Assembly (NCBI GenBank): GCA_021818475.1
Contig: JAKADZ010000002.1
Location: forward strand, 64,536-128,535
Direction of reading: 5' to 3'
From: Nanobdellota archaeon
GTDB taxonomy: Archaea; Nanobdellota; Nanobdellia; Pacearchaeales; GW2011-AR1
Length of the DNA stretch: 64,000 nucleotides
The notes under the pieces were generated by a model. It worked only from the letters and a program-made list of their open reading frames with translations. It was not told the origin of the DNA and made no database searches. The translations under genes and the position numbers were made by a program. This document shows positions 3,402-58,992 of the stretch, piece by piece; within the stretch, counting starts at the first letter, position 1, and each line of letters begins with the position of its first letter.

Positions 3402-5774
3402 ATGGCTGAGGAAACAAATCCTATGAAAGATATCGAAGAGAAATGGAAAAAATACTGGGAAGAGGAAGGAATTTACAAATTCAACCAAAAAACAAGGAAA
3501 AAAATTTATTCTGTTGATACGCCTCCTCCAACTGTTTCAGGAAGAATGCACATCGGGCATGCATTTTCATATTCGCAGAGCGATTTTATTGTAAGATTCA
3601 AAAGGATGATGGGAAATGAAGTATTCTATCCTTTCGGAACAGATGATAACGGACTTCCGACTGAAAGGCTTGTTGAAAAAAGCAAAGGAGTTCATGCAAA
3701 AGATATGCCCAGAAAAGAATTCATTAAATTATGTATGGAATTTTTAAAAGAGGAAATCCCAAAATTTATACAAGACTGGAAAAATATCGGGATAAGCTGC
3801 GACTGGAATATGAAATATTCTACCATCGACGACAATTCAAGAAAAGTTGCGCAGTGGTCTTTTCTTGATTTATACAAAAAAAACAGAATGTACCGAAAAG
3901 ACGCGCCTGCAATGTGGTGTCCTGAATGCAGAACAGGGGTAGCACAGGTTGAAGTTCAGGATAAAGAAATTGATTCTTTTTTTAACGATATACTTTTCAA
4001 AACAGGAAAAGAAGATTTGAAAATTGCGACAACACGTCCTGAATTGCTTCCTGCATGTGTTGCGGTTTTTTATCATCCCGAAGACAAAAGATACAAAAAA
4101 TATCAGGGAAAAAAAGCAAAAGTTCCATTGATGGATTTTGAAGTCCCAATTCTCGAAGACAAAAGAGTAGATATGAAAAAAGGAACAGGTATTGTTATGT
4201 GCTGCACATTTGGGGATCAGACAGATATGGAATGGCAAAAAGCTTACAACCTTCCGATAAAAATTGCAATATCCGAAAACGGAGAGATGTTGCCTATTGC
4301 GGGAAAATATAAAGGAATGAAAATAAAAGAAGCAAGAAAGGAGATTATCAAAGACCTGAAAGAAGCAGGACTTCTGACAAATCAGACTCCGATAAAACAT
4401 TTTGTTAATGTTCATGAAAGGTGCGGAACTGAAATTGAATTTGTAAAAAGCAAACAATGGTTTGTGAAATATCTTGATTTGAAAGAGGACTTATTGAAGT
4501 GGGGGGCAGAATTAAATTGGCATCCGCTGTTTATGAAAAACAGATACGATAATTGGGTAAAGGGATTGCAATGGGATTGGCTGATATCAAACCAGAGATA
4601 TTTCGGGGTTCCTTTCCCTGTATGGTATTGTGAAAAATGCGGTGAAGTTATTTTAGCAAAAGAAAGCCAGCTTCCCGTGGATCCTATAAAAGACAAACCT
4701 CCTGTAAGCAAATGTCCAAAGTGTAAATCAGAAAAAATAATTCCTGAAACAGATATTCTTAACACGTGGTTCACTTCTTCAATGTCTCCGAAACTTGCAG
4801 TTGAAAATGTAAAAGATGAGGAAACAAAGAAAAAATTATTCCCTATGAGTCTCCGTCCGCAGGCGCATGAGATAATTTCATTCTGGCTTTTTAATACAGT
4901 CGTAAAATCAAGACTGCATTTCAAAAAAAATCCATGGAAAGATGTTGCAATTTCAGGATTCGTTACAATGAAAGGAGAAAAAATGTCAAAGAGCAAAGGC
5001 AATGTAATCTCCCCGCAGGAGGTCATGGAAAAATTCGGGGCAGATGCATTAAGATACTGGGCAGCATCTTCAAAATTAGGCGAAGATTTTGATTATCAGG
5101 AAAAAGATTTGGTTACGGGAAAAAAATTAATTACAAAATTAATCAATGCTTCAAGATTTATTTTCATGAATTTAAAAGATTACAAAGGAGAAAAACCAAA
5201 AAAGCTGGAAGCAACAGATGAATTATTCCTGAATGAACTAAATAAGTTGATTGAAGGAGTTACGGAAGATTTTGAAAATTATGAATATTCATTGGCAAAA
5301 CAAAAAGTCGACCAATTTTTCTGGAGAGACTTCTGCGACAATTATCTGGAAATAGTCAAGAAAAGAGTTTATAACGGAAAAGGGAATGAAAAAATTTCCG
5401 CGCAATATGCTCTGTATAATTCATTATTAACAATACTAAAATTGTTCGCTCCGATAATCCCATTTATTACTGAAGAAATTTATCAGAACAATTTCAAAAC
5501 TTTTGAAAAAACAAAATCAATTCATATTTGTGAATGGCCGAAATACCAGAAAAAGAAAAAGATAGATGAAAATGAATGGAATTTAATGCTTGAGGTTATT
5601 TCAAAAATAAGACAGGAAAAATCAAACGCGAAAAAACCGATGAATGCCCAAATTATTTTGACAATTACAAAAGAGGACAATTCTTCATTAAAACTATTTT
5701 TAGAAGATTTAAAATCTGTTGCAAATGCTTCTGAAATTAAAGAAGGCAGTTTTAATGTTAAATTTGTCGAATGA
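3402..5774 (+). CDS. valS: valine--tRNA ligase
   Basis: 790 aa. Class I HIGH (RMHIGHAF) and KMSKS (KMSKSKGN) motifs. DTPPPTVSG...GTDDNGLPTE N-terminus and a CP1 editing region, as in archaeal ValRS. Confidence 0.9.
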   Translation: MAEETNPMKDIEEKWKKYWEEEGIYKFNQKTRKKIYSVDTPPPTVSGRMHIGHAFSYSQSDFIVRFKRMMGNEVFYPFGTDDNGLPTERLVEKSKGVHAKDMPRKEFIKLCMEFLKEEIPKFIQDWKNIGISCDWNMKYSTIDDNSRKVAQWSFLDLYKKNRMYRKDAPAMWCPECRTGVAQVEVQDKEIDSFFNDILFKTGKEDLKIATTRPELLPACVAVFYHPEDKRYKKYQGKKAKVPLMDFEVPILEDKRVDMKKGTGIVMCCTFGDQTDMEWQKAYNLPIKIAISENGEMLPIAGKYKGMKIKEARKEIIKDLKEAGLLTNQTPIKHFVNVHERCGTEIEFVKSKQWFVKYLDLKEDLLKWGAELNWHPLFMKNRYDNWVKGLQWDWLISNQRYFGVPFPVWYCEKCGEVILAKESQLPVDPIKDKPPVSKCPKCKSEKIIPETDILNTWFTSSMSPKLAVENVKDEETKKKLFPMSLRPQAHEIISFWLFNTVVKSRLHFKKNPWKDVAISGFVTMKGEKMSKSKGNVISPQEVMEKFGADALRYWAASSKLGEDFDYQEKDLVTGKKLITKLINASRFIFMNLKDYKGEKPKKLEATDELFLNELNKLIEGVTEDFENYEYSLAKQKVDQFFWRDFCDNYLEIVKKRVYNGKGNEKISAQYALYNSLLTILKLFAPIIPFITEEIYQNNFKTFEKTKSIHICEWPKYQKKKKIDENEWNLMLEVISKIRQEKSNAKKPMNAQIILTITKEDNSSLKLFLEDLKSVANASEIKEGSFNVKFVE

Positions 5775-7290: not shown

Positions 7291-7414
7291 TTATTATCAG
7301 ACAACTTCCTCTGGGGGCGGGCGATTTCGCGAGGACAAATTTCGGTTGTGGAGGGGTGGATGGCGGAGGATAAAAAATCGAGCGAAGTCGCTAGTTGGGC
7401 GGAAAAAAGTCGCT
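7291..7414 (+). repeat. modular intergenic repeat, copy 2 (long GC-rich E module)
   Basis: ctgggggcgggcgatttcgcgagg ... atcgagcgaagtcgctagttgggcgg. Shares the gcgatttcgcg and agcg-a/g-gtcgc..agttggg-y-gg blocks with copies at 27866, 28345, 35061, 53407 and 58905. Confidence 0.8.
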
Positions 7415-27559: not shown

Positions 27560-28204
27560 TTATATTTCCTCTTCCAACTTCTTAATTTTCATCCAGACTT
27601 TTTCAAACTTAGTGTTGGACTCATCAACGATTATTTTTAAAAAATTATCATCGACCAAAAGTTTTCCATCCTGAATTATTGGAAGTTCAATTTTTTCGCT
27701 TGCATTAAGTTCAACAATAAAATTTTTTTTAAGTTCAATAATTCCTGATTTTTTCCATCCCGCTAATTTTCCTTTTTCATAAATTTTTTCAGCATCTTCA
27801 AGTGTTTTGCATGCAATATGGAGAATGCACGGTTCGAATTTGAATTTAATATTTTTAATTCCCTTTTGGGTGGGCGAGCGATTTCGCGAAGGAAAGGTCA
27901 GTGACGAGTGAGCAGGGTCACGAGTTGGGTGGGAACTGGTTATAGAAATCAATTTTCCCAATTCATCTTTCAGTTCCTTAAATGAAATTTTATCGTGGGA
28001 AACAAAAACAAATAAGTTCTCTGCCTTTTTATCCTGGTCAATCATAAGTAAAACTCTTCCTGAACATGAAGAAGTGGTGTAATAATTTTCTAGAGAATTT
28101 ATCTTGTCGCATAAAGAAGAAATTTTCTCATCCCATTTTCCAATTGAAGATTTATCTTCTTTTGAGAGAATATCCTTTTTTCTCTGATTAAAATTGTCTT
28201 TCAT
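27560..28204 (-). CDS. taw3: tRNA wyosine-derivative methyltransferase Taw3/TYW3-like, carrying an in-frame repeat insertion
   Basis: NYYTTSSCSGRVLLM motif of the TYW3 family and ...FEPCILHIACKTLEDAEKIYEKGKLAGWKKSGI. Start placed at ATG 28204 (MKDNFNQRKK); the track ORF extends to 28297. Insert peptide is SHPTRDPAHSSLTFPSRNRSPTQKG. Confidence 0.75.
   Translation of the reverse strand: MKDNFNQRKKDILSKEDKSSIGKWDEKISSLCDKINSLENYYTTSSCSGRVLLMIDQDKKAENLFVFVSHDKISFKELKDELGKLISITSSHPTRDPAHSSLTFPSRNRSPTQKGIKNIKFKFEPCILHIACKTLEDAEKIYEKGKLAGWKKSGIIELKKNFIVELNASEKIELPIIQDGKLLVDDNFLKIIVDESNTKFEKVWMKIKKLEEEI
27862..27938 (+). repeat. GC-rich E module of the repeat family located inside the Taw3-like CDS
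   Basis: ccttttgggtgggcgagcgatttcgcgaaggaaaggtcagtgacgagtgagcagggtcacgagttgggtgggaact. ttgggtggg occurs at both ends (27866-27874 and 27925-27933). Confidence 0.9.
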
Positions 28205-28295: not shown

Positions 28296-28435
28296 AATCA
28301 ATCCAAAAAATTCTGAAAGAATTTTTTGCTCTCTTTCTTTTTTGAGTAGGCAAGCGATTTCGCTAATAGAAATTAATTTCCCTTCGGGTGGGAGGGCGGG
28401 GATTAATGAGCGGGGTCGCGAATTGGGGGGAATTA
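28296..28435 (+). repeat. modular intergenic repeat, copy (D hairpin variant + E module with G-quadruplex motif)
   Basis: caaaaaattc-tgaaa-gaattttttg at 28304-28328. gtaggcaagcgatttcgct... gggtgggagggcgggg at 28386-28401. aatgagcggggtcgcgaattgggggg. Confidence 0.85.
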
Positions 28436-29257: not shown

Positions 29258-30268
29258 TTATCTCTTAGATACGCTTATTCTATGTTTTGAAAAAAATCTG
29301 AATGTAAAAAATCCAAGCACAACAGCGACCAAAACTCCGGAAGAGATGAATACATTTGTTTTGTTGCTGAAGAAATTTCCAACTGCCCCGATAGGTCCTT
29401 TGATTACACTGCCAACTAAGTTAAAGAAATTTTGTTTAGATTGAGTTTGGGTTTCATTTACGATAGGAGAAGTGCAGGCTTGTGAAGTTTCAGGCATTCC
29501 TTCCTGAATTCCGCAATTATTTGAATCTGTACATGCCCTAACCTGAGTCCCGTTAATACATTCCTGCCAGTCACCACAATTCCAGTTAGGAGAACATGTG
29601 GGAGTTTGCTGAATTGCATCCGCAGTTGCTGTAGTTGAAGTGGTATCAGGAGTAGTAGTTGCACTTACACATTCATGAATTATTGAAGGTTCTGTTAAAG
29701 TAGTCCCGCAGGAATTTGAATCAGTACAGGTTCTTGTTTTATTGCCGTTTGTACAATCAGTCCAGTCCGTGCATGTCCAGTTTTCAACACAAGCAGAAGT
29801 GCAAGTCTGGCTTAACACAGGTTCATCATTTGTGGTCCCGCAGGAATTTGAATCAGTACAGGTTCTTGTCTGAGTTCCATCCGTGCAGTCAGTCCAGTCC
29901 GTGCATGCCCAGTTTTCAGCACAGGTTACAGTGGAATTTGTAGTATCTGTTGAATTTGTAACTGTGGAATTTAAATCAGTAGAATTAGTAATTGTGGAAT
30001 TTGTAGTATCTGTTGAATTTGTAACTGTGGAATTTAAATCAGTAGAATTAGTAATTGTGGAATTTGTAGTAGTTGAAGCTGATGCTACAGATAAATCAAC
30101 ACAAGTGTTATTGACCCATGAATAATTAGCTGCCTCGCATGAAGTCTGATTAGTGTAATCTGAAACTGCATAACCGGTAAACTTAAAATTAGACTGAAGA
30201 ATAATAACTCCGATAGCAAAAGCGAGTAGGATCAGAATTCCAAATTCATGTGCAAACCTCTTTTTCAT
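29258..30268 (-). CDS. secreted/membrane-anchored Cys-repeat surface protein rich in N-glycosylation sequons
   Basis: 336 aa. N-terminal signal/TM and C-terminal TM. Three copies of C-x-ENW-x-C-TDW-TDC-x-G-x-x-TRTCTDSNSCGT. Tandem NST-rich segment (TNSTITNSTDLNSTVTNSTDT, two copies). Confidence 0.75.
   Translation of the reverse strand: MKKRFAHEFGILILLAFAIGVIILQSNFKFTGYAVSDYTNQTSCEAANYSWVNNTCVDLSVASASTTTNSTITNSTDLNSTVTNSTDTTNSTITNSTDLNSTVTNSTDTTNSTVTCAENWACTDWTDCTDGTQTRTCTDSNSCGTTNDEPVLSQTCTSACVENWTCTDWTDCTNGNKTRTCTDSNSCGTTLTEPSIIHECVSATTTPDTTSTTATADAIQQTPTCSPNWNCGDWQECINGTQVRACTDSNNCGIQEGMPETSQACTSPIVNETQTQSKQNFFNLVGSVIKGPIGAVGNFFSNKTNVFISSGVLVAVVLGFFTFRFFSKHRISVSKR
29931..30071. repeat. 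perfect 63-bp tandem duplication (2.2 copies) inside the surface-protein gene
   Basis: 29931-29993 is identical to 29994-30056, followed by a partial third copy. The unit is a multiple of 3 and encodes 21 aa of N-x-T sequons. Confidence 0.95.
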
Positions 30269-30329
30269 ACGAATTAAAGAAAAAAACTATTTAAATATTT
30301 ATCGAAATTATTTATCTAAAAAGATAAGA

Positions 30330-32498
30330 TTATCTTTTCCTTTTCATTTCCCTTCTAATCTTCCTCTTATTTTTTCTTATTTCTTTTCTCTGCTTTCTAC
30401 TTAGTCCATTCTTAGCTCTTCTGTTATGAATAACTCTGATTAAAACAATTGCAAAAATTCCTGTTAAAATTGTTCCTATTAAGAATTTGAACTGTCCTGA
30501 TTTGTAAAATGAAACTGTGCATTTCCCATTGTCGCATGTGTCTGAGCAGTGGTCTGTTACAAGCCATGTTGCATTTCCTAAACATAATTGAACATTATTG
30601 TCCGCGCATCTTGCAGAATTTGGAAGGCAGTCATATTTGTTGAAGAAAATTGCGAAAGTCGAAAATCCAGGAGTTGAAGATTTGAAGTAATAAGCGTTGT
30701 CATCTTCGCCTGTATAATTTGTAATTAAAGGCGCCCAGCTTGAAGTTCCTGTCGGCATTCTGTAAACTGCAATATTTCCGACGATATCATTTTGCAAGAG
30801 CCAGTATCTGTTCGCTTTATGATGAAAAGTGATATTATTTTCTGCAAGGAAAGTTTTGTTTATTTTGAAATCTAAAGTTGCATTTAAAATGTCATTATAT
30901 TGAATTCCTAATGGTTCAATCTGAAATAACTGATACAATTTCCCTATAGGTAATCCGAATAATAAAAATTCAGTCTGGTCAACTTTAGTAATATTCATTG
31001 ATGCATTTTCAACAGACTTTTTCAGAATTAAAGTTATTCCTGTCAAATCCATTTTTGTATTATTTAATGTTATCTGAACAGGTTCTGAAGGAGCTACATT
31101 CATAATAGGTTTTGAAATTGTAACGCTTCCTCCACCGCCACCCCCACTCGGAGATTGAGGCGGAGCTACATGCCCCCCAGTAGAACAAGTTTGGGTTTCT
31201 GCAGGCTTGCCTGCAGTTGTTCCACAAGCATTTGCGTCAGTGCATGTTCTTGTTTGAATTCCTCCAGAACAATCTGACCAAGCAGAACAACCCCACGATT
31301 CAAAGCAGGGGTTTTGCAGGCTGATATTTGAAGCATTTAACTGATAAATGGTATCTCCTCCAAACATAATATTAAGTACTCCCGCATAAACATATCCTCC
31401 CCCAATAGAGATAGAGTTTCCATGACCTGTAGTGGTGTAATTTGCGATTTGCTGTGAAACATTTGAAGCATTTAACTGATAAATTTCATATGGGCCATTA
31501 TCACTACTAAAATAAACGTAGCCGTTTGAAACTGCTGGAGAAGAAGTTGAAAAACCGCTAATATTTGCGATTTGCTGTGAAACATTTGAAGCATTTAACT
31601 GATAAAAGTCATTGTAGTCTCCAATGTAAACGTAGCCGTTTGAAACTGCGGGGGAATAACTCAGACTGGCTCCAGAAGAATAATTTGCGATTTGCTGTGA
31701 AACATTTGAAGCATTTAACTGATAAAGATTATCTGCCCCTACATAAACGTAGCCGTTTGAAACTGCTGGAGAAGAAGGAACAGTATAAAGAGGTATCAAA
31801 TAATTTGCGATTTGCTGTGAAACATTTGAAGCATTTAACTGATAAATTATATATTTTACTGCTCCCTTAAGAGAACTAGAGACAGTAAAATAAACATAGC
31901 CGTTTGAAACTGCTGGAGAAGAAAATGTTTTTCCCCCAGTTGAAAAACTATTTACCATTTGTGAGATATTTGAAGCATTTAACTGATAAAAATTAAAATT
32001 AACAGAATCTCCAACATAAACATAGCCGTTTGAAACTGCTGGAGAATCAAAAGTATCAATTCCCCCAGAATAATTTGCGATTTGCTGTGAAACATTTGAA
32101 GCATTTAACTGATAAAGACCGTTAGAACCAAAGTATAAAAAACCATTTGCAATAACCGGAGAGGAGGAACATACAGCAGAATAATTTGCGATTTGCTGTG
32201 AAACATTTGAAGCATTTAACTGATAAAGATTATCTGCCCCTACATAAACGTAGCCGTTTGAAATTATAGATGGAGAAGGTATACTTGCTAAGGGATTAAA
32301 GGGAGTAGTAAAATTTGCATTGTTTAAATTAGGAATTACTGTAAAATTCTGCCCATCCCAAAAACTATGACCTAAAGTTCTTCCAAACATTAACCATTCA
32401 CTTGTCGAAGAAGAATCTGAACCCTGACTGGAAATAAATAAAATTAAAAATAATAAACATAATGCAAAAATAAAAAAAATAATCCCCTCTTTTTTCAT
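30330..32498 (-). CDS. large surface protein with ~10 PQQ-like beta-propeller repeats, one Cys-repeat module, C-terminal TM and basic tail
   Basis: 722 aa with a signal peptide. Repeats are of the form SPAVSNGYVYVG...YQLNASNVSQQIANYS. Also CFESWGCSAWSDCSGGIQTRTCTDANACGT, a Gly-rich linker, a TM helix and RRAKNGLSRKQRKEIRKNKRKIRREMKRKR. Confidence 0.8.
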   Translation of the reverse strand: MKKEGIIFFIFALCLLFLILFISSQGSDSSSTSEWLMFGRTLGHSFWDGQNFTVIPNLNNANFTTPFNPLASIPSPSIISNGYVYVGADNLYQLNASNVSQQIANYSAVCSSSPVIANGFLYFGSNGLYQLNASNVSQQIANYSGGIDTFDSPAVSNGYVYVGDSVNFNFYQLNASNISQMVNSFSTGGKTFSSPAVSNGYVYFTVSSSLKGAVKYIIYQLNASNVSQQIANYLIPLYTVPSSPAVSNGYVYVGADNLYQLNASNVSQQIANYSSGASLSYSPAVSNGYVYIGDYNDFYQLNASNVSQQIANISGFSTSSPAVSNGYVYFSSDNGPYEIYQLNASNVSQQIANYTTTGHGNSISIGGGYVYAGVLNIMFGGDTIYQLNASNISLQNPCFESWGCSAWSDCSGGIQTRTCTDANACGTTAGKPAETQTCSTGGHVAPPQSPSGGGGGGSVTISKPIMNVAPSEPVQITLNNTKMDLTGITLILKKSVENASMNITKVDQTEFLLFGLPIGKLYQLFQIEPLGIQYNDILNATLDFKINKTFLAENNITFHHKANRYWLLQNDIVGNIAVYRMPTGTSSWAPLITNYTGEDDNAYYFKSSTPGFSTFAIFFNKYDCLPNSARCADNNVQLCLGNATWLVTDHCSDTCDNGKCTVSFYKSGQFKFLIGTILTGIFAIVLIRVIHNRRAKNGLSRKQRKEIRKNKRKIRREMKRKR
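31321..32270. repeat. array of near-identical intragenic repeats (44-nt perfect core, 6 full + 2 partial copies)
   Basis: atttgcgatttgctgtgaaacatttgaagcatttaactgataaa occurs at 31440, 31563, 31683, 31803, 32073 and 32184. Partial copies lie at 31324 and 31957. Confidence 0.95.
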
Positions 32499-34947: not shown

Positions 34948-35312
34948 TTCTTTTTCTCCGCAATTATAAAATCTTTATTTGCTTCTGGTGCATTTTCAAA
35001 CATTATTCTCTTGTCAAGTTCGCAGATTTTTGAAGTTTCGCGAATAGAATTATTTCCCCGTTGGGTGGGCGAGCGATTTCGCGAAGTTGAGGTCAGTGTT
35101 ATGTGAGCGGGGTCGGGAGTTGGGTGGGAATTAATGAGCGAAACAGAATTTTCTTCCCTTTCAAATTTTTCCCGTTCAATTGAATTATCAACTTCAATCT
35201 TTTGTTTAATCTGAGAAAGTTTCTTGGAGAAAGAATCAATTATAGAATCAACCTGTTTCTTTACTTCTTCCTTTTCTTTATCAGACATTTGTCGCCATAA
35301 AAAATCATCCAT
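34941..35312 (-). CDS. gatC: GatC-like amidotransferase subunit C carrying an in-frame repeat insertion
   Basis: Overlaps the gatA start by 7 nt. The C-terminus ...RIMFENAPEANKDFIIAEKK resembles the GatC L-x-N-A-P...F-x-V-P tail. Insert peptide is SHPTPDPAHITLTSTSRNRSPTQRG. Confidence 0.55.
   Translation of the reverse strand: MDDFLWRQMSDKEKEEVKKQVDSIIDSFSKKLSQIKQKIEVDNSIEREKFEREENSVSLINSHPTPDPAHITLTSTSRNRSPTQRGNNSIRETSKICELDKRIMFENAPEANKDFIIAEKKKW
35055..35140 (+). repeat. GC-rich E module of the repeat family located inside the GatC-like CDS
   Basis: tccccgttgggtgggcgagcgatttcgcgaagttgaggtcagtgttatgtgagcggggtcgggagttgggtgggaattaatgagcg. ttgggtggg occurs at 35061-35069 and 35120-35128, the same 59-nt spacing as in the Taw3 copy. 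Confidence 0.9.
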
Positions 35313-42783: not shown

Positions 42784-42857
42784 TTACCAAAAAAATGTTA
42801 ATAATTTTTAAATGTTTATATACAAAATTTAATAAATTAAAATAAATTCAAGAATAG

Positions 42858-44219
42858 ATGGTAAAAATAGGATTGGAAATTCATGGTTATATAAACACAG
42901 GTGAAAAACTTTTCTGCAGATGCAAAACAGTTCATGGGTTAAAATTTTCAGAACCAAATACAAATATCTGCCCGATTTGCACAGGACAACCTGGAGCGAA
43001 GCCGATGCTTCCGAATAAATCAGCAATTGACAAATCAATTCAGATAGGCCTTATATTAAACTGCAAGATAAATCCAAAATTAATCTGGCAAAGGAAACAT
43101 TATGACTGGCCTGACCTTCCAAAAGGATACCAAAATACAATTTCAGGAGCTCATGCAAAAACTACGGGAGAAAACGGAGAGTTTATGGGAATAAAAATAA
43201 GGGAGATTCATCTTGAAGAAGACCCCGCCGCATGGAATCCAAAAACAGGGGAAATAGATTACAACCGTTCTGGTTCACCATTAATTGAAATTGTAACAGA
43301 GCCCGATTTCTCTTCGGCGGAACAGGTAATTGACTGGCTTAAACAATTAGTCTTAACTTTAAGTTATATAAAAGTATTTGATAAAAAATCAGGGATAAAA
43401 GCAGATGTGAATATTTCTCTTCCTGAATTAAAGGGAGAAAGAGTCGAAGTAAAAAATATCAATTCACTGAAAAATATCAAAACTGCAATAGAGTTCGAGA
43501 TAAGCAGACAAAAAACAGATGTTCCAAAGGTTCAGGAAACAAGAATGTTTGATGAATCAAAAGGAGCAACATTAAAAATGCGAAGCAAAGAACAGGCAGA
43601 AGATTACAGATTCATTTCAGATCCGGATTTGCCTGCAATAATAATTGAAAAATCAAGAGTAGAAAAAATAAAATCTGCAATTCCTGAAACCCCTCAGGAA
43701 AAACTAAAAAAGCTGATTAAAAAATATAACATTGAAAAAAAATATGCCGAGATTCTTACTAAAAAAATTGATATTGCAGAATTTTTCGAAAAAATTATTG
43801 AGAAAGCAAACCCTAAGATTGCATCACAGTGGACAACAATTGAACTTCTTAGCGTTTTGAATTACAACAAAAAAGAATTTGAAGATGTTGAAATTTCTCC
43901 CGAGCATTTCATTGAACTTTTGAAATTAATTGAAAATAAAAAAATTACAGAATTAAAAGCAAAAGAAATTCTAAGAAGCTGGAAAGAAAAATCTTCATCT
44001 CCTGCAAAAGAAGCAGAAAGCAGTTCAAAAATTTCTTCAGAAGGAGAAATTGAAAAAGTTGCAAAAAAAATAATCAAAGAAAATTCAAATGCAGTAAAAG
44101 ATTTCAGGGCAGGAAAATCAGAATCTTTAAATTTCCTGATAGGAAAAGTCATGCAAAAAACAAATAAGCGCGCAGATTTCAAAACAGCTAGGGAAGTTTT
44201 GGAAAAATTATTAAGATAA
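42858..44219 (+). CDS. gatB: Asp/Glu-tRNA amidotransferase subunit B
   Basis: 453 aa. IGLEIHGYINTGEKLFCRC, PNTNICPICTGQPGAKPMLPN, HYDWPDLPKGYQNT and a YqeY-like tail. Confidence 0.9.
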   Translation: MVKIGLEIHGYINTGEKLFCRCKTVHGLKFSEPNTNICPICTGQPGAKPMLPNKSAIDKSIQIGLILNCKINPKLIWQRKHYDWPDLPKGYQNTISGAHAKTTGENGEFMGIKIREIHLEEDPAAWNPKTGEIDYNRSGSPLIEIVTEPDFSSAEQVIDWLKQLVLTLSYIKVFDKKSGIKADVNISLPELKGERVEVKNINSLKNIKTAIEFEISRQKTDVPKVQETRMFDESKGATLKMRSKEQAEDYRFISDPDLPAIIIEKSRVEKIKSAIPETPQEKLKKLIKKYNIEKKYAEILTKKIDIAEFFEKIIEKANPKIASQWTTIELLSVLNYNKKEFEDVEISPEHFIELLKLIENKKITELKAKEILRSWKEKSSSPAKEAESSSKISSEGEIEKVAKKIIKENSNAVKDFRAGKSESLNFLIGKVMQKTNKRADFKTAREVLEKLLR

Positions 44220-44228
44220 TTTAATATT

Positions 44229-44625
44229 TTATCACCTCTTTTTTATTTAAGAAGTTGGATTTAATCTGTTTTATTTTGTTGGGATTTCATTTGAGTTTTT
44301 TCTCCTTAACAATTTTTCCGGCGTAGCGTCGTGTCTGAAAGCCGACACAAAGCAATCAATAATAAAAAAAGAAAGGATAAAATTTTTCTTCCCTCTTCGG
44401 ATGTGCGAGCGTTTGCACAAGTGATAACTTTCCTCTTGGGGCGGGGGCGGGAAGAAAATTCCCTTGAATATGAGAAACTTCGCGAGTAGAAACATTTTCC
44501 CTTCGGGCGTGAGGGGGGGAATAAATGAGCGAAGTCGCGAATGAAATTCTATTAAATAAATTTACTCCATAAAAAAATATTCCTTTGGGGAGGGCGGGTG
44601 GGAACGGGTAGAATAAGGCAAGAAA
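44229..44625 (+). repeat. largest cluster of the modular repeat (A motif, hairpin module, several E-type GC modules, G-quadruplex motif)
   Basis: ttatcacctctttttt at 44229-44244. gtgtc-tgaaagcc-gacac hairpin. gatgtgcgagcgtttgcac. ggggcgggggcggg at 44438-44451. aatgagcgaagtcgcgaatg. ggggagggcgggtggg at 44587-44602. Confidence 0.85.
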
Positions 44626-44636
44626 GAAAATAAAAT

Positions 44637-44828
44637 TTATTTCTTTAGAACAAGACAAGTATAATAATCCTCACATAAATCACAACTTTTCCCTGGACGA
44701 TAACATCTTGGCTCAGGTTTATCTTTTTCTTCTTGCTGTTCCGAAGATGCAAGTGCTTTATCTGACCACATCCATCTTTCCCGTGCATCTAAAAAAGAAG
44801 AAAGTTCTCTGTAATTTTCTTTTCCCAT
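44637..44828 (-). CDS. small Cys-rich hypothetical protein (63 aa)
   Basis: ORF with a CYRPGKSCDLCEDYYTC C-terminus. No motif recognised. Confidence 0.4.
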   Translation of the reverse strand: MGKENYRELSSFLDARERWMWSDKALASSEQQEEKDKPEPRCYRPGKSCDLCEDYYTCLVLKK

Positions 44829-44990
44829 TTGGGTAAAATAATCTTCCGATTTTTAAAGATTATTGTGATAAAAATTCCTTTTAAGTTACGATTAAAAAAA
44901 TTTCCTTTGGGTTTTCTACCACATTAGGTTCTTTCCGAATTTCTATGCGGAATGGGTAAGTTTCTACTCTCACTTTTTTCAAAAGAACCC

Positions 44991-45009
44991 ATGAGCCCAC
45001 GAGGAATTG
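44991..45009 (-). repeat. duplicated 3' fragment of tRNA-Arg (19 nt, identical to 45164-45182)
   Basis: atgagcccacgaggaattg is repeated exactly, covering the T-loop/T-stem/acceptor 3' strand plus 1 nt. The two copies are separated by 154 bp. Confidence 0.9.
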
Positions 45010-45079
45010 GGCCTCACGTTCGCTCGACCTAATTCATCTTTTTCAAATCCGAATTAAACCCAAGAGTTCAATTCAAATA

Positions 45080-45135
45080 GATTAATTTTGTTTTCAACAT
45101 CAGGCTTGACCACAAATTCAAGGGGAAAATGAGTG
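45080..45135 (+). repeat. repeat-family fragment between tRNA-Arg and its duplicated 3' end
   Basis: gattaattttgttttcaacatcaggcttgaccacaaattcaaggggaaaatgagtg is collinear with 58862-58911 (gattaggttgtcttcaacaggcttgaccacactttcaaggggaaaatgtgtg). Confidence 0.8.
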
Positions 45136-45164
45136 TAAAGAAACCGTGTAGGTTTCGTTCATTA

Positions 45165-45236
45165 TGAGCCCACGAGGAATTGAACCCCGATCAACCGGTC
45201 CGAAGCCGATTGTTCTATCCGTTAAACTATGGGCCC
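45165..45236 (-). tRNA. tRNA-Arg (anticodon UCG)
   Basis: Manual fold, 72 nt: acceptor GGGCCCA/UGGGCUC, D arm GUUU-AACGGAUA-GAAC, anticodon arm AUCGG-CUUCGGA-CCGGU, variable UGAU, T arm CGGGG-UUCAAUU-CCUCG, discriminator A. CCA is not encoded. Confidence 0.9.
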
Positions 45237-45286
45237 ATAAAAAGTAGAGGAATAAGGTTTTTATATGTTATTTGCATACTAAAAAA

Positions 45287-46150
45287 ATGGCATTAAAGAG
45301 GCATCACAAAATAATTATCGGTGGAGTCAGTTTTTTGGTAATTTTATTCATGATAACGAGCACTCTTTTTATGTATATGATTTTTACTAAACAAACAACA
45401 GATTATAATGAATTAAATCAAAAAATAATAAATCTCCAGACTGATACTCAGACAAAATTCAACAGTGTCTCAGATAATTTAAGAAGCCTCGAAAATCAGT
45501 CTCAATACCTCGGTTCACAGTTTGGTTCATTGGATACAGAAATGACAAAGTTAAAAGCTTCCACAAGTTCAGATTTCTCTGGGATAATAGACAATGCAGT
45601 TAAATCTGTAGTCACAATAAAAACTGATTTAGGCCAGGGTTCTGGTTTTGTAATTGCCAATGGAGGTTATGTTGTTACAAATGAACATGTTATGGAAGGG
45701 GCAACAGCTGCAGTGATAATAACTTATGATGGGAAACAGCACCGTGTTGCAATAATCAATGATGATCCAACAATGGATATTGCATTATTAAAAATGGATG
45801 ATACTAGTTATCCTTCCTTAGAATTAGGAGATTCTGATACAGTTCAGGTAGGGGAAAAAGTAATTGCGATAGGAAATCCTCTTGGGCTGCAATTCTCTGT
45901 ATCTGAAGGAATAGTTTCTGCAGTTCATAGAGAAGGAGAAAACCAATTGGATGCATATATCCAGACTGATGCATCGCTAAATCCTGGAAATTCCGGTGGT
46001 CCGTTGATAGATGTAAATGGCAAAGTGATAGGTATAAATAACTTCAAATTAAGCAATAGCGAGAATATAGGATTTGCGCTCGAATCAAATTATATTAAAA
46101 GTACGGTTAATAATCTTGCACAGAAATCCTTGGGACAAACATTAATATAA
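45287..46150 (+). CDS. membrane-anchored trypsin-like serine protease (HtrA/S1C-like, no obvious PDZ)
   Basis: ATG at 45287; the track ORF starts at TTG 45272. N-terminal TM. GSGFVIANGGYVVTNEHV (His), DIALLK (Asp), GNSGGPL (Ser). Confidence 0.85.
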   Translation: MALKRHHKIIIGGVSFLVILFMITSTLFMYMIFTKQTTDYNELNQKIINLQTDTQTKFNSVSDNLRSLENQSQYLGSQFGSLDTEMTKLKASTSSDFSGIIDNAVKSVVTIKTDLGQGSGFVIANGGYVVTNEHVMEGATAAVIITYDGKQHRVAIINDDPTMDIALLKMDDTSYPSLELGDSDTVQVGEKVIAIGNPLGLQFSVSEGIVSAVHREGENQLDAYIQTDASLNPGNSGGPLIDVNGKVIGINNFKLSNSENIGFALESNYIKSTVNNLAQKSLGQTLI

Positions 46151-46186
46151 ATTCTTATAAACTCTGAAATTTTAAATAATAGTCTG

Positions 46187-47161
46187 ATGGAATTGGAAAA
46201 AACAATTTTAGATCCAGAAAAAGGATTTGGTTTGGTTCTTTCTGGTGGAGGAGCCTGGGGGGCATATGAAGCAGGAGTAATAAAATGCCTTGACGAAGCA
46301 GGAATAAAATTTGAAGTAATATCAGGAACTTCTGCGGGTTCTCTGAATGCAGCTTTGACTGCAGCAGGAAAAATCCCAGATATGATAAGAATTTGGGAAA
46401 CTATCTCACCAAATAAAGTTTTAAAATTTACCCCTAAAAATTTAATGCATGGGGCAATAATGGATAATACTCCCCTGGAAAAACTTATCAGGGAAGAGAT
46501 TAAAAAAGAGGATGCAGACAAAATCATAAATTCCCCTACAAGATTAGTCATTGTCTCATCATGCCTGCAGGATAAAAAAGAAATAACTGAAACTGATTTT
46601 AAAAATTATGAGCAGATTGTGGAATCGCTGCTTTCATCATGCACAATTCCGCTTACATTTAAGCCAAGGGAATATCACAGTCAGGGAAGTGTAGTCCAGC
46701 GTGTCGATGGAGGGATAATTAATAATTTTCCTCTGGATGAAGCGATACAGAACAGCAGGTGCAAAAACTTTTTTTCTGTCTCATTATTTCCTCACAATTT
46801 ACAGCAGGGAGCGGATTATCATTATAATGATTTTCTCCATATAGGTATGAGAACCCTGGAAATAATGTTTACCAATTCTTATTTAAGGGAAATTTCAGAT
46901 GTAAAAGAAAAAATAAACCTTGCATATAAGTTAAAAGAAATAATTGAACCTGGAATTTTTAGGGGAAAGAAAAAAAGAAAAAAAGCAGATGAATTATACA
47001 GGCAATACGAAAGATATGATGACATGCAGATAGTTGAAATTAATCCCGTGGAAGAATTTCCTGGAGGGGTTTTGGATTTTATGTCTGAAAAAACAAAAAA
47101 GATGATGAATCAGGGTTATGAAGATGCATTAAAGACTCTGGAAAGAGTAAAAATAGTTTAA
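46187..47161 (+). CDS. patatin-like phospholipase
   Basis: 324 aa. SGGGAWGAYEAG oxyanion loop, GTSAG nucleophile elbow and VDGG (Asp of the dyad). Confidence 0.85.
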   Translation: MELEKTILDPEKGFGLVLSGGGAWGAYEAGVIKCLDEAGIKFEVISGTSAGSLNAALTAAGKIPDMIRIWETISPNKVLKFTPKNLMHGAIMDNTPLEKLIREEIKKEDADKIINSPTRLVIVSSCLQDKKEITETDFKNYEQIVESLLSSCTIPLTFKPREYHSQGSVVQRVDGGIINNFPLDEAIQNSRCKNFFSVSLFPHNLQQGADYHYNDFLHIGMRTLEIMFTNSYLREISDVKEKINLAYKLKEIIEPGIFRGKKKRKKADELYRQYERYDDMQIVEINPVEEFPGGVLDFMSEKTKKMMNQGYEDALKTLERVKIV

Positions 47162-47167
47162 CAGTAA

Positions 47168-47180
47168 TTTTAAATATATA
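47168..47180 (+). promoter_or_regulatory. TATA-box-like element upstream of proS
   Basis: ttttaaatatata lies 17-29 nt upstream of the ATG at 47197. Confidence 0.4.
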
Positions 47181-47196
47181 ATTTCTATAAAATAAT

Positions 47197-48639
47197 ATGG
47201 AAAAATCTCAGGAAGGATTAACTGTAAAGAAAGATGAAAATTTCAGTGAATGGTATACGCAATTGATAGAAAAAGCAGAGCTAGCTGATCTAAGGTATAA
47301 CATTAAAGGATTCTTAGTATTCCAACCTTGGTCTGTACTTTCTATGGAGAAGATGTTTTCTTCAATGGAAAAAGTTTTACAAAGAAAGGGGCATTCTCCT
47401 TATTTCTTTCCAACACTAATTCCAGAAAATAATTTAAAAAAAGAGAGTTCACACATTAAAGGATTCACACCCGAAGTATTTTGGGTAACTCAGGGAGGGG
47501 ATAATGTTCTTGAAGAAAAATTTGCTTTAAGACCCACAAGTGAAACTGCATTTTATCAAATGTTTTCTTTGTGGATTAGAAGTTATAAAGAATTACCATT
47601 TAAAACTTATCAAAGAGCAAATATATTTAGACATGAAACAAAAGCAACACGTCCATTTTTAAGAAGTAGAGAATTTCATTGGATTGAAACACATTGTGCT
47701 CATGCTTCAAAAGAAGATGCAATGTCTCAAGTGAAAGAAGATATGGAAACCACAAAAGAAGTTTTACATGATATTTTTGGATTACCTTTTATGTTTTTTG
47801 AAAGACCTTCTTGGGATAAATTTCCTGGAGCAGAAAAAACTTTTGCAGCAGATGTTTTAAATCCAGACGGGAAAGTTGTTCAGCAACCCTCAACTCATAT
47901 TTTAAAACAAGAATTTCCAAGAGCGTTTGGAGTAACATTTAAAGATAAAAATGGAGAAGAAAAAACAGTTTGGACAACCTGTTATGGTCCAGCGATATCA
48001 AGAATATTCGCAAGTGTGATGATTGTTCATGGAGATGACAAGGGATTAAAATTTCCTTGGGATATTGCTCCATTGCAAGTTGTAATTATCCCAATAAATG
48101 AAGAAGTAAAACAAAAAGCGGAAAAATTAAAATTAGAAATAGAAAAATTCGCTTCTGTAAAAATTGACTATTCAGATAAGCGCCCAGGAGAAAAATTCAA
48201 TTATTGGGAAATGAAAGGGGTTCCAATAAGAATAGATTTAGGATTGAAAGATTTGGAAAATAAAAAAATAACTGTATTTAGAAGAGACTTAGATAAAAAA
48301 GAAGTTGTTAGTGAATCCGAACTTATTAAAAAAATAAAAAAAATTTCAGAAGAAATAACAAAAAATTTAACAAAGAAAGCAGATAATCTTTTCAATAATA
48401 AAATAAAAGATGCAAAAAATATTAAAGAAATTAAAAAAATAATAGAGGAGGGAGGAATTGCAAGATGCAATTTTTGCTCTGTAGAAAAAGAGGGAGAAAA
48501 ATGTGCAGAAATAATCGAAAAAGAAACAGGAGCCCAAGTGAGGGGAACAAAATTAGATGAAAAACAAAAACCAAACGGAAAATGTGCAATATGTGGAAAA
48601 CCTGCTCATAACATAGTTTATATTGCTAAATCATATTAA
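47197..48639 (+). CDS. proS: proline--tRNA ligase (archaeal/eukaryotic type)
   Basis: 480 aa. FSEWYTQLIEKAEL start, motif 2 IFRHETKATRPFLRSREF, class IIa anticodon-binding domain (APLQVVIIPI) and a C-terminal Cys cluster ending ...YIAKSY. Confidence 0.92.
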   Translation: MEKSQEGLTVKKDENFSEWYTQLIEKAELADLRYNIKGFLVFQPWSVLSMEKMFSSMEKVLQRKGHSPYFFPTLIPENNLKKESSHIKGFTPEVFWVTQGGDNVLEEKFALRPTSETAFYQMFSLWIRSYKELPFKTYQRANIFRHETKATRPFLRSREFHWIETHCAHASKEDAMSQVKEDMETTKEVLHDIFGLPFMFFERPSWDKFPGAEKTFAADVLNPDGKVVQQPSTHILKQEFPRAFGVTFKDKNGEEKTVWTTCYGPAISRIFASVMIVHGDDKGLKFPWDIAPLQVVIIPINEEVKQKAEKLKLEIEKFASVKIDYSDKRPGEKFNYWEMKGVPIRIDLGLKDLENKKITVFRRDLDKKEVVSESELIKKIKKISEEITKNLTKKADNLFNNKIKDAKNIKEIKKIIEEGGIARCNFCSVEKEGEKCAEIIEKETGAQVRGTKLDEKQKPNGKCAICGKPAHNIVYIAKSY

Positions 48640-53325: not shown

Positions 53326-53485
53326 TTATCGCCTCTTTTTTAAAACATATTTGCAGTTAATTCTAATTAACCAACAGATTTTTCCCTCATTAACAAATTT
53401 TCCCTCGGGGGTGGGCGAGAGTTTTCGCAATGCCAGTAAATTTTTGAATGCATTTGCGAGGGCTCGAGTTGGGCGGGAACAAGTA
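53326..53485 (+). repeat. modular intergenic repeat, copy (A-motif variant, attaacaaatttt module, long E module)
   Basis: ttatcgcctcttttt at 53326-53340. gggggtgggcgagagttttcgcaatg...tttgcgagggctcgagttgggcgggaac at 53407-53480. Confidence 0.8.
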
Positions 53486-58682: not shown

Positions 58683-58992
58683 AGGCTTAACCAAAAAGGA
58701 AAACGGGTTAGATTATTTTAGTTAGTTCAAACACAAATTCAGGAAAGTTTAAACAAAAATTTAAGGAATTTCTTTATTAACAAATTTCCAAACAGAGCGC
58801 CTTGACGAATGTCTGGCGCGAAGCAATCAACATCAAAATTTCAGGGAAATTTTTAAGAAAGGATTAGGTTGTCTTCAACAGGCTTGACCACACTTTCAAG
58901 GGGAAAATGTGTGCGAGCGATTTCGCGGAAGTGAGGCCAGTGATATGCAAGCGAGGTCGCGAGTTGAGAAAACCGATTAGGTTGTCTTCAAC
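58683..58992 (+). repeat. modular intergenic repeat cluster (GC hairpin module, D hairpin variant, gattaggt module twice, long E module)
   Basis: agagcgccttgacgaatgtctggcgcgaagc. aaaatttc-agg-gaaatttt at 58835-58853. gattaggttgtcttcaac at 58862-58879 and again at 58975-58992. gtgtgcgagcgatttcgcggaagtgaggccagtgatatgcaagcgaggtcgcgagttgag. Confidence 0.85.

Follow-up and report, generated by a model that had tools for sequence, protein, structure and literature searches.

A short non-coding insertion at the 3' boundary of a tRNA-Arg(UCG) gene in a DPANN archaeon, with the end of the gene duplicated around it

We describe here a stretch of 64,000 nucleotides from a Nanobdellota archaeon (hereafter the window), in which 154 bp of non-coding DNA lies exactly at the 3' boundary of the tRNA-Arg(UCG) gene and is bracketed by two perfect copies of the last 19 bp of its target. 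Comparison with related genomes indicates a real insertion, with the outlying ‘orphan’ copy corresponding to the displaced original end of the tRNA gene. The event is recent and still polymorphic, and comparable small insertions recur at the same gene in two other lineages and at the tRNA-Lys gene of the window. The window has a GC content of 33% and two tRNA genes, one of them with an intron in the anticodon loop, which marks the genome as archaeal; homologues of the genes neighbouring the insertion are labelled Pacearchaeota or Nanoarchaeota (DPANN) by their sources. Coordinates are collected in Table 1.

Table 1. Features of the window discussed in the text; positions are those of the whole stretch, and the strand is left blank where none applies
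Feature	Position	Strand	Basis or remark
tRNA-Lys(CUU), intron of ~19-21 nt in the anticodon loop	21573-21666	-	Rfam search
tRNA-Lys 5' end plus 2 upstream nt, three copies	21644-21864		21644-21668 (in gene), 21742-21766 (25 bp), 21849-21864 (16 bp)
GatB-like	42858-44219	+	gene order
63-aa Cys-rich ORF	44637-44828	-	gene order
Module H, left arm (44914-44930), then 42-column hairpin interruption (44931-44972)	44914-44972		L024 and L036 lack the interruption
Right arm of hairpin module H, forming the ancestral 3' flank of the tRNA	44973-44990		18/18 against the flank of the intact tRNA in L024
Distal orphan 19-bp copy (displaced original tRNA end)	44991-45009		adjoins ancestral flank
Insert, non-coding, 37% GC, stops in six frames	45010-45163		154 bp; no Rfam family, no terminal inverted repeats
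Insert, left part, with imperfect hairpin at ~45045-45078	45010-45079		no relative of the sequence found
gattaattttgttttcaac, counterpart of the 18-bp repeat preceding M at 58862-58879	45080-45098	+	alignment
Module M, TCAGGCTTGACCACAAATTCAAGGGGAAAATG plus hairpin GAAACC/GGTTTC at 45140-45156	45100-45163	+	homologous copies: 58880-58913, L036 545-605, L022
Gene-proximal 19-bp copy, C56-A73 plus 1 nt	45164-45182		exact match
tRNA-Arg(UCG), intact, without intron	45165-45236	-	Rfam RF00005, 59.2 bits
S1C/HtrA-like protease	45287-46150	+	gene order
Patatin	46187-47161	+	gene order
ProRS	47197-48639	+	gene order
Second M copy, GC-rich core nested inside	58862-58992		18-bp exact repeat (58862-58879 / 58975-58992) brackets 95 bp

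The exact 19-mer, ATGAGCCCACGAGGAATTG, occurs twice in the whole 64 kb, once within the intact gene and once as the orphan; allowing up to three mismatches adds no further match in the 64 kb (shuffled sequences lead one to expect none), and the next best partial match to the tRNA-Arg anywhere in the window is 12 nt long. Read along the tRNA, the repeat begins at C56 of the T-loop and extends past the discriminator base A73 to include one nucleotide of trailer, and identity is perfect over these 19 bp and absent directly outside them. ARAGORN, for its part, calls the tRNA-Arg(TCG) at 45164-45237 on the minus strand. Both the extent of the repeat and the 154-bp spacing had been noted in the original prediction and are borne out here; one copy plus the insert makes a unit of 173 bp. 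The arrangement is 100% identical in at least seven independent assemblies (ENA and Logan), so an assembly artefact is ruled out, and with zero matches expected by chance the notion of a fortuitous repeat is likewise refuted. Nor is the 19-mer just another dispersed repeat module, given the absence of any other match in the 64 kb and the few loci returned by wider scans; among 185,579 species genomes there was a single match, in an unrelated bacterium, beside a tRNA-Lys gene.

Evidence for a real insertion comes from the DNA to the left of the orphan copy. The sequence CTTTTTTCAAAAGAACCC (44973-44990) is matched at 18 of 18 positions in two relatives, L024 (Ga0334722_10002073) and L036 (ERZ27249449), whose GatB and protease are 89% and 75% identical to those of the window; it adjoins the intact tRNA-Arg end directly in L024 and with 4 nt between in L036, and the similarity of the window to both relatives ends right after the 19-mer. 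Since the flank of the orphan meets an intact tRNA in these genomes, their sites are evidently unoccupied, and we take the orphan to be the original tRNA end, displaced. In the closest relatives, L027 (protease 84%) and L025 (82%), the tRNA end is likewise single. The original prediction had anticipated such empty sites, and the situation that it set against its own proposal, the same arrangement throughout the relatives with no empty site, was not seen in any of these four. The flank itself belongs to a hairpin module, H, with computed arms at 44927-44934 and 44982-44989; the interruption of ~42 bp within it (44931-44972) has a possible 4-bp CTTT duplication, and would then be a further, nested small insertion.

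That the insertion is still polymorphic follows from the way in which contigs end in one metagenome. In the Logan assembly of sample SRR13299515, contig _359160 corresponds to window 43437-45009 and stops at the last base of the distal repeat, and contig _125973 corresponds to window 45164-47256 and begins at the first base of the proximal repeat; contigs from SRR13300764, SRR13240876 and SRR13241953 read through the locus (43434-47256, 43437-47256 or 43437-47310). Logan graphs are built with k=31, so that a 19-bp repeat alone cannot break a contig, and breaks after 45009 and before 45164 lead one to expect a second path that runs from the left flank through the 19-mer into the body of the tRNA, in other words an empty site; the alternative of a tandem or circular junction would shift the left break to ~45020. 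Contig ends flush with the repeat edges thus imply that an empty-site allele coexists in the population of this sample, as the original prediction had hoped for in metagenomes, whichever presumed direction, gain or loss, the change took there.

No terminal inverted repeats were found in the 154 bp of the insert, and no Rfam family or second tRNA-like match; T-loop-like 9-mers within it, considered as possible scars of older events, proved to be at chance level, with many 9-12-mers matching elsewhere in the window. Its right 64 bp, flush with the tRNA-proximal repeat, form a module that we call M, which is laid out as TCAGGCTTGACC.....TTCAAGGGGAAAATG followed by a hairpin. The hairpin changes in sequence among copies and keeps its pairing, with arms GAAACC/GGTTTC in the insert, AAGAAACC/GGTGTCTT in L036 and GAGAAAACC/GGTTGTCTTC at 58.9 kb. 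M is present twice in the window and once each in L036 and L022. The copy in the distant L022 sits downstream of tRNA-Arg in the same orientation; in L036 (538-612, compared with window 42849-42870) a copy of 61 bp has been cleanly inserted at the start codon of GatB, with ATGGTTA, a duplication of 7 bp, flanking it, and the window provides the empty site for this insertion.

A resemblance between part of the insert and a dispersed repeat copy at 58.86 kb had been pointed out beforehand and is confirmed, with 82% identity over 51 bp between 45085-45135 and 58863-58913 (E 2e-8). The wider link that was drawn from it, between the repeat family and the insertion, stands in part: the insert does share module M, but the GC-rich core of the family, CGAGCGATTTCGCG...GAGCGGGGTCGCGAGTTGGGTGGG, is absent from 45010-45163, which matches only the M part beside one core copy, and the other short inserts have no sequence in common with it. 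Across the six inserts, M is the only shared sequence, with no other significant similarity; an ACGGT found 17-18 nt past the tRNA end in the three Arg inserts was noticed by eye alone and is too weak a signal to build on. At the second M copy, the 18-bp repeat that brackets the 95 bp is GATTAGGTTGTCTTCAAC; a SpoIIM-like gene on the minus strand has a stop codon, 58988-58990, that overlaps it, and in the relative L018 an H hairpin module occupies this same place. Other intergenic copies of the GC-rich repeat lie at 7300-7405, 28335-28435, 44378-44605, 53400-53480 and 58909-58966. Two more (27848-27948 and 35043-35143) sit inside minus-strand ORFs, in frame and with no stops, in a manner that resembles Rickettsia palindromic elements; the ORFs concerned are a TYW3-like gene (...TSSHPTRDPAHSSLTFPSRNRSPTQKG...) and a small ORF (...NSHPTPDPAHITLTSTSRNRSPTQRG...). 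The G-rich strand of the repeat has G-quadruplex-type runs such as GGGTGGG.

The genes beyond the tRNA had been suggested as accessory cargo, a suggestion that does not survive comparison. An S1C protease flanks tRNA-Arg in all relatives, as a syntenic core neighbour, and L027, whose tRNA end is not duplicated, has the patatin gene as well; the two genes are moreover located 5' of the tRNA and not within the bracketed DNA. The patatin gene is older than the insertion event. It is restricted to the window and the L027 lineage, and the ProRS of the window is 37% identical to those of L024, L036 and L031, with neighbouring proteins at 75-89%. We suggest that 46187-48639, 5' of the tRNA, has been replaced or acquired as a block. 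The tRNA-Arg exons of the window, L017-L027, L031, L036 and L038 fall into two types, distinguished by compensatory changes in the acceptor and D-stem, and the introns measure 0, 15, 16, 26, 44, 52, 71 or 82 nt; neither exon type nor intron tracks protein similarity. L024 and L036, for instance, have GatB proteins that are 96% identical, yet differ in tRNA-Arg type and in intron (71 vs 15 nt). We suggest that alleles have been exchanged at the tRNA-Arg locus.

Searches for a recombinase or a carrier gave a consistent picture. Pfam searches revealed no integrase, transposase or Cas1 among the neighbours within ~10 kb (for which precomputed Pfam lists were used) or among 30 further ORFs of the window, all of at least 140 aa and 9 of them without any Pfam match; a PF00589-type match was equally absent from the scanned ORFs. 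The 173-bp unit holds no ORF, and an SSV-type split integrase is rejected by six-frame translation of the circularised unit, which meets stops everywhere. The integrase genes for which the original prediction proposed to search were therefore not found in the scanned ORFs, and of its proposed attL/attR footprint we retain the insertion bracketed by a duplicated tRNA 3' segment, and not the mediation by an integrase, neither integrase nor carrier having come to light. Viral contigs, which it proposed to screen for the 19-mer, were covered as well. IMG/VR, INPHARED and PLSDB, in which DPANN elements are scarce, yielded no relevant match to an attP-bearing carrier; querying viral contigs with the 19-mer, a degenerate 18-mer, the M motif and two pieces of the insert returned nothing, or chance matches in GC-rich phage genes; and in a BLAST search of 44880-45240 against phages and plasmids only the tRNA matched. 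The insert is not a virus or an island.

The window is not alone in having its tRNA-Arg end duplicated. A scan of JGI metagenomes with the 19-mer found seven loci, and among the lineages concerned two others, L017 and L019, have a 3'-end duplication of their own at tRNA-Arg(UCG), each independent of that in the window. Over the scope considered here (both tRNAs of the window, and tRNA-Arg in 13 lineages), the tRNA-Arg end is duplicated in 3 of 13 distinct lineages and the orphan piece is absent from the other 10. The second tRNA of the window also carries small insertions at a gene end, in this case the 5' end of tRNA-Lys, where the copies cover -2 to +23 (25 bp) and -2 to +14 (16 bp), with an H-like hairpin between the fragments at 21810-21846. 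In L045 the intact tRNA-Lys is directly preceded by CTTTTTAATCTC.TTTTCTAA.GAT, which in the window is found beyond the most distal fragment. As the native promoter flank lies outside the distal copy, new units are added gene-proximally, and the topology is the same as at tRNA-Arg, with the native flank displaced and the newest unit beside the gene. Contig ends were uninformative at this locus (the break falls at 21827, away from the repeat edges).

All of these repeats are perfect and short-range, with repeat and insert lengths (in bp) of 19/154 in the window tRNA-Arg, 24/46 in L017, 26/60 in L019, and 25/73 and 16/82 at tRNA-Lys; distant tRNA-end fragments were not found in the 64 kb. The outer edge of the repeat falls at the gene boundary each time (Arg 0, +1, +3; Lys -2, -2) and the inner edge varies. 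Exact short-range repeats number 42 in the window, vs 0.3 expected, and most are in coding tandem repeats. The larger part of this count stems from 29700-32300, where long in-frame tandem repeats with units of ~111-135 bp occupy minus-strand ORFs (29258-30268 and 30330-32498) that probably encode surface proteins. A motif like GATGTTYGAGWAGAGAATATAGATA stands upstream of several genes, including in the native tRNA-Lys promoter region (L045 ~2840-2930 and 3530-3560; window ~21905-21930), and may be promoter-associated. A dispersed perfect hairpin, CAAAAATTTCTGAAAGAAATTTTTG, terminator-like in character, occurs at 1205-1240, 21450-21485, 27517-27561 and 28304-28339, with one copy just downstream of tRNA-Lys and another adjoining a GC-rich repeat copy.

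Taking these findings together, we tentatively propose a model of miniature insertion at a gene boundary, which duplicates its target and is carried out by machinery encoded elsewhere. A piece of 154 bp of non-coding DNA, in part the lineage's own module M, would enter exactly at the 3' boundary of tRNA-Arg. We envisage a break with staggered cuts, of which one would lie in the T-loop and the other 1 nt beyond the discriminator, and filling-in of both overhangs around the inserted DNA. The last 19 bp of the target were thereby duplicated and the gene stayed intact, with a hairpin and T-run as the new 3' flank of the tRNA and the old end, together with its flank, displaced by 173 bp. In effect this would act like transposase or casposase-type integration with a very small substrate, and loss of the unit by recombination of the 19-bp copies could give rise to the empty allele. 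The insertion with its exact boundaries, the displaced ancestral flank, the polymorphism, the recurrence and the lack of recombinase genes among the scanned ORFs are observed; what we infer is how the staggered cut is made and by which enzyme, and whether the polymorphic sample reflects gain or loss.

Perfect repeats and polymorphism point to recent events that began small, and direct insertion with target duplication fits this recency and these sizes as well as the gene-proximal addition at tRNA-Lys and the copy of M at GatB. Against this reading stand the variable duplication lengths of 7, 16, 19, 24, 25 and 26 bp, where a single transposase or Cas1 gives a fixed length, the lack of terminal inverted repeats in the insert, and M as the only sequence shared among inserts, so that no defined element emerges. 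An attP that mimics the tRNA end would equally place the repeat edges at the tRNA boundary, which counts against the target-duplication reading, and this reading is further weakened in that the empty allele is deduced from contig ends and not from direct reads. On balance we nonetheless lean, with some hesitation, towards target-duplicating insertion ahead of the scar of an integrated element. More speculatively still, and with considerable doubt, we raise the prospect that Pacearchaeota may possess a still-active and hitherto undescribed route that adds non-coding cassettes of ~40-150 bp exactly at tRNA 3' or 5' ends and at the start codons of ORFs, with the terminal 7-26 bp duplicated so that the gene survives, units placed gene-proximally as in CRISPR spacer acquisition, and no recognisable integrase, transposase or Cas1 nearby.

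The main competitor, possible though on the unlikely side, is that a tyrosine-integrase element (a virus, a plasmid or an island) entered tRNA-Arg and was later trimmed to 154 bp by internal deletion, with the repeats as its attL/attR scar, or else that a non-autonomous, CIME-like cassette was moved in trans. Such a scar would account for the canonical position (T-loop to 3' end), for the rebuilt tRNA with an orphan that adjoins native flank, for the empty-site allele implied by the contig ends, and for repeats that end at the tRNA boundary; tRNA-Arg has moreover been struck in three lineages, with the inner edge in the T-arm each time, the tandem tRNA-Lys fragments resemble tandem accretion, and archaeal precedents exist in PYG1 (PMC9897764) and in the tRNA-Thr of Caldiarchaeum (PMC3293823). 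It must, however, contend with scanned ORFs of the window and flanks that include no integrase, and with the viral and plasmid collections, in which no attP-bearing sequence was found. The five tRNA-linked units, all of 70-173 bp, are too small to act as double-stranded circular substrates, and with repeats that are perfect, and one of them polymorphic, there would have been little time for five independent shrinkages from kilobase size; host-type repeat modules within the inserts sit equally poorly with this explanation.

We regard as improbable, though worth setting out, a second alternative, in which the flank of a foreign Pacearchaeota genome was captured through one homologous and one illegitimate joint at the conserved tRNA. 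The product expected of this, a donor flank beside the gene and a duplicated gene end, agrees with repeat edges that fall where conservation between lineages stops, namely at the gene boundary, with an exon type and intron length (0-82 nt) at tRNA-Arg that are incongruent with protein similarity, as in a locus that exchanges alleles, and with the presence of M downstream of tRNA-Arg, in the same orientation, in L022. The inserted flanks also look functional, since tRNA-Arg is followed by a hairpin and T-run and tRNA-Lys is preceded by a BRE/TATA-like stretch. Homology-anchored capture, however, usually removes recipient DNA instead of duplicating it, no donor flank was found that is collinear with the full 154 bp, and M at the GatB start of L036 has an identity of 7 bp only. 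Far less probable again is that a local tandem duplication arose long ago and then diverged, or that the orphan is a second 3' piece with a function, such as a split-tRNA half or a processing signal. The insert and the old flank do both carry a hairpin of the H/M family downstream of a tRNA end, but identity of 100% over 19 bp and none thereafter, absence of the arrangement from the closest relatives (L027, L025, L024 and L036) and polymorphism within one population all speak against duplication, and the orphan has no 5' acceptor partner and no second Rfam tRNA-like match to go with it. A split or permuted archaeal tRNA was rejected likewise, as the full tRNA is present and the orphan is missing in 10 of 13 lineages.

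If the inserts are only trimmed attachment-site scars, the finding is routine, and would record that recombination has hot spots at tRNA-Arg(UCG) and tRNA-Lys(CUU) in a DPANN lineage about which little is known. The perfect repeats, the polymorphism and the consistently tiny sizes suggest that the inserts have been small since they arose. If so, they point to a mechanism by which ultra-small archaeal genomes remodel the promoters and terminators of their essential genes, and would bear on the disruption of tRNA genes, the gain of fragments, and swaps of alleles and introns.

Among known systems of small or cassette-like DNA, MITEs are recognised by terminal inverted repeats, by a short duplication of fixed length and by numerous near-identical copies. 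Modules M and H and the GC-rich core recall both MITEs and Rickettsia palindromic elements in being small, non-coding, multi-copy and intergenic; a MITE is nevertheless rejected for the insert, which has no terminal inverted repeats, recurs only in its M part and belongs to a set with duplications of varying length. CIMEs, known from Streptococcus, are cis-mobilisable, att-flanked cassettes without recombination genes, kilobase-sized derivatives of ICEs for which the integrases are known. As in CIMEs, att-like repeats here bracket DNA that has no integrase of its own, but nothing comparable to a kilobase ICE derivative was found at these loci. Casposons carry a cas1 gene, end in terminal inverted repeats and produce a duplication whose length is fixed at 14-15 bp. 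They and CRISPR acquisition share with the present case a defined site, often a tRNA 3' end, and duplication of the target, and new tRNA-Lys units are added beside a fixed end much as spacers are beside the leader; with duplications of 16-26 bp (7 at GatB), no inverted repeats and no Cas1 seen in the scanned ORFs, the present case nonetheless departs from integration of the casposon or Cas1 type.

The closest likeness is with archaeal elements that target tRNA genes. SSV1 integrates in the tRNA-Arg gene of Sulfolobus. In Pyrococcus yayanosii the element PYG1 is enclosed by 44-bp repeats (PMC9897764). As with these two elements, a repeat of the 3' part of the tRNA brackets foreign DNA, one copy completes the gene, the other adjoins the old flank, and relatives are empty; elements of this type, though, have repeats of ~44 bp around 9-23 kb with an integrase, as against 19 bp around 154 non-coding bp here, with no integrase in the scanned ORFs of the 64 kb. 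The duplication of a tRNA end around an insertion thus has the topology of archaeal element scars and of the Caldiarchaeum tRNA-Thr locus, but neither an integrase, among the scanned ORFs, nor a gene-bearing insert was found. At the tRNA-Thr of Caldiarchaeum subterraneum, a 5' fragment, a recombinase-bearing insert and heterogeneity of alleles and introns have been described (Sugahara et al. 2012, PMC3293823). The insert in that case is 1.8 kb long, recombinase-coding and multi-copy (PMC3293823), compared with 46-154 bp of non-coding DNA here; the two cases nevertheless have in common heterogeneity within a population at a single tRNA locus, an end fragment beside a complete gene, and a changing intron content.
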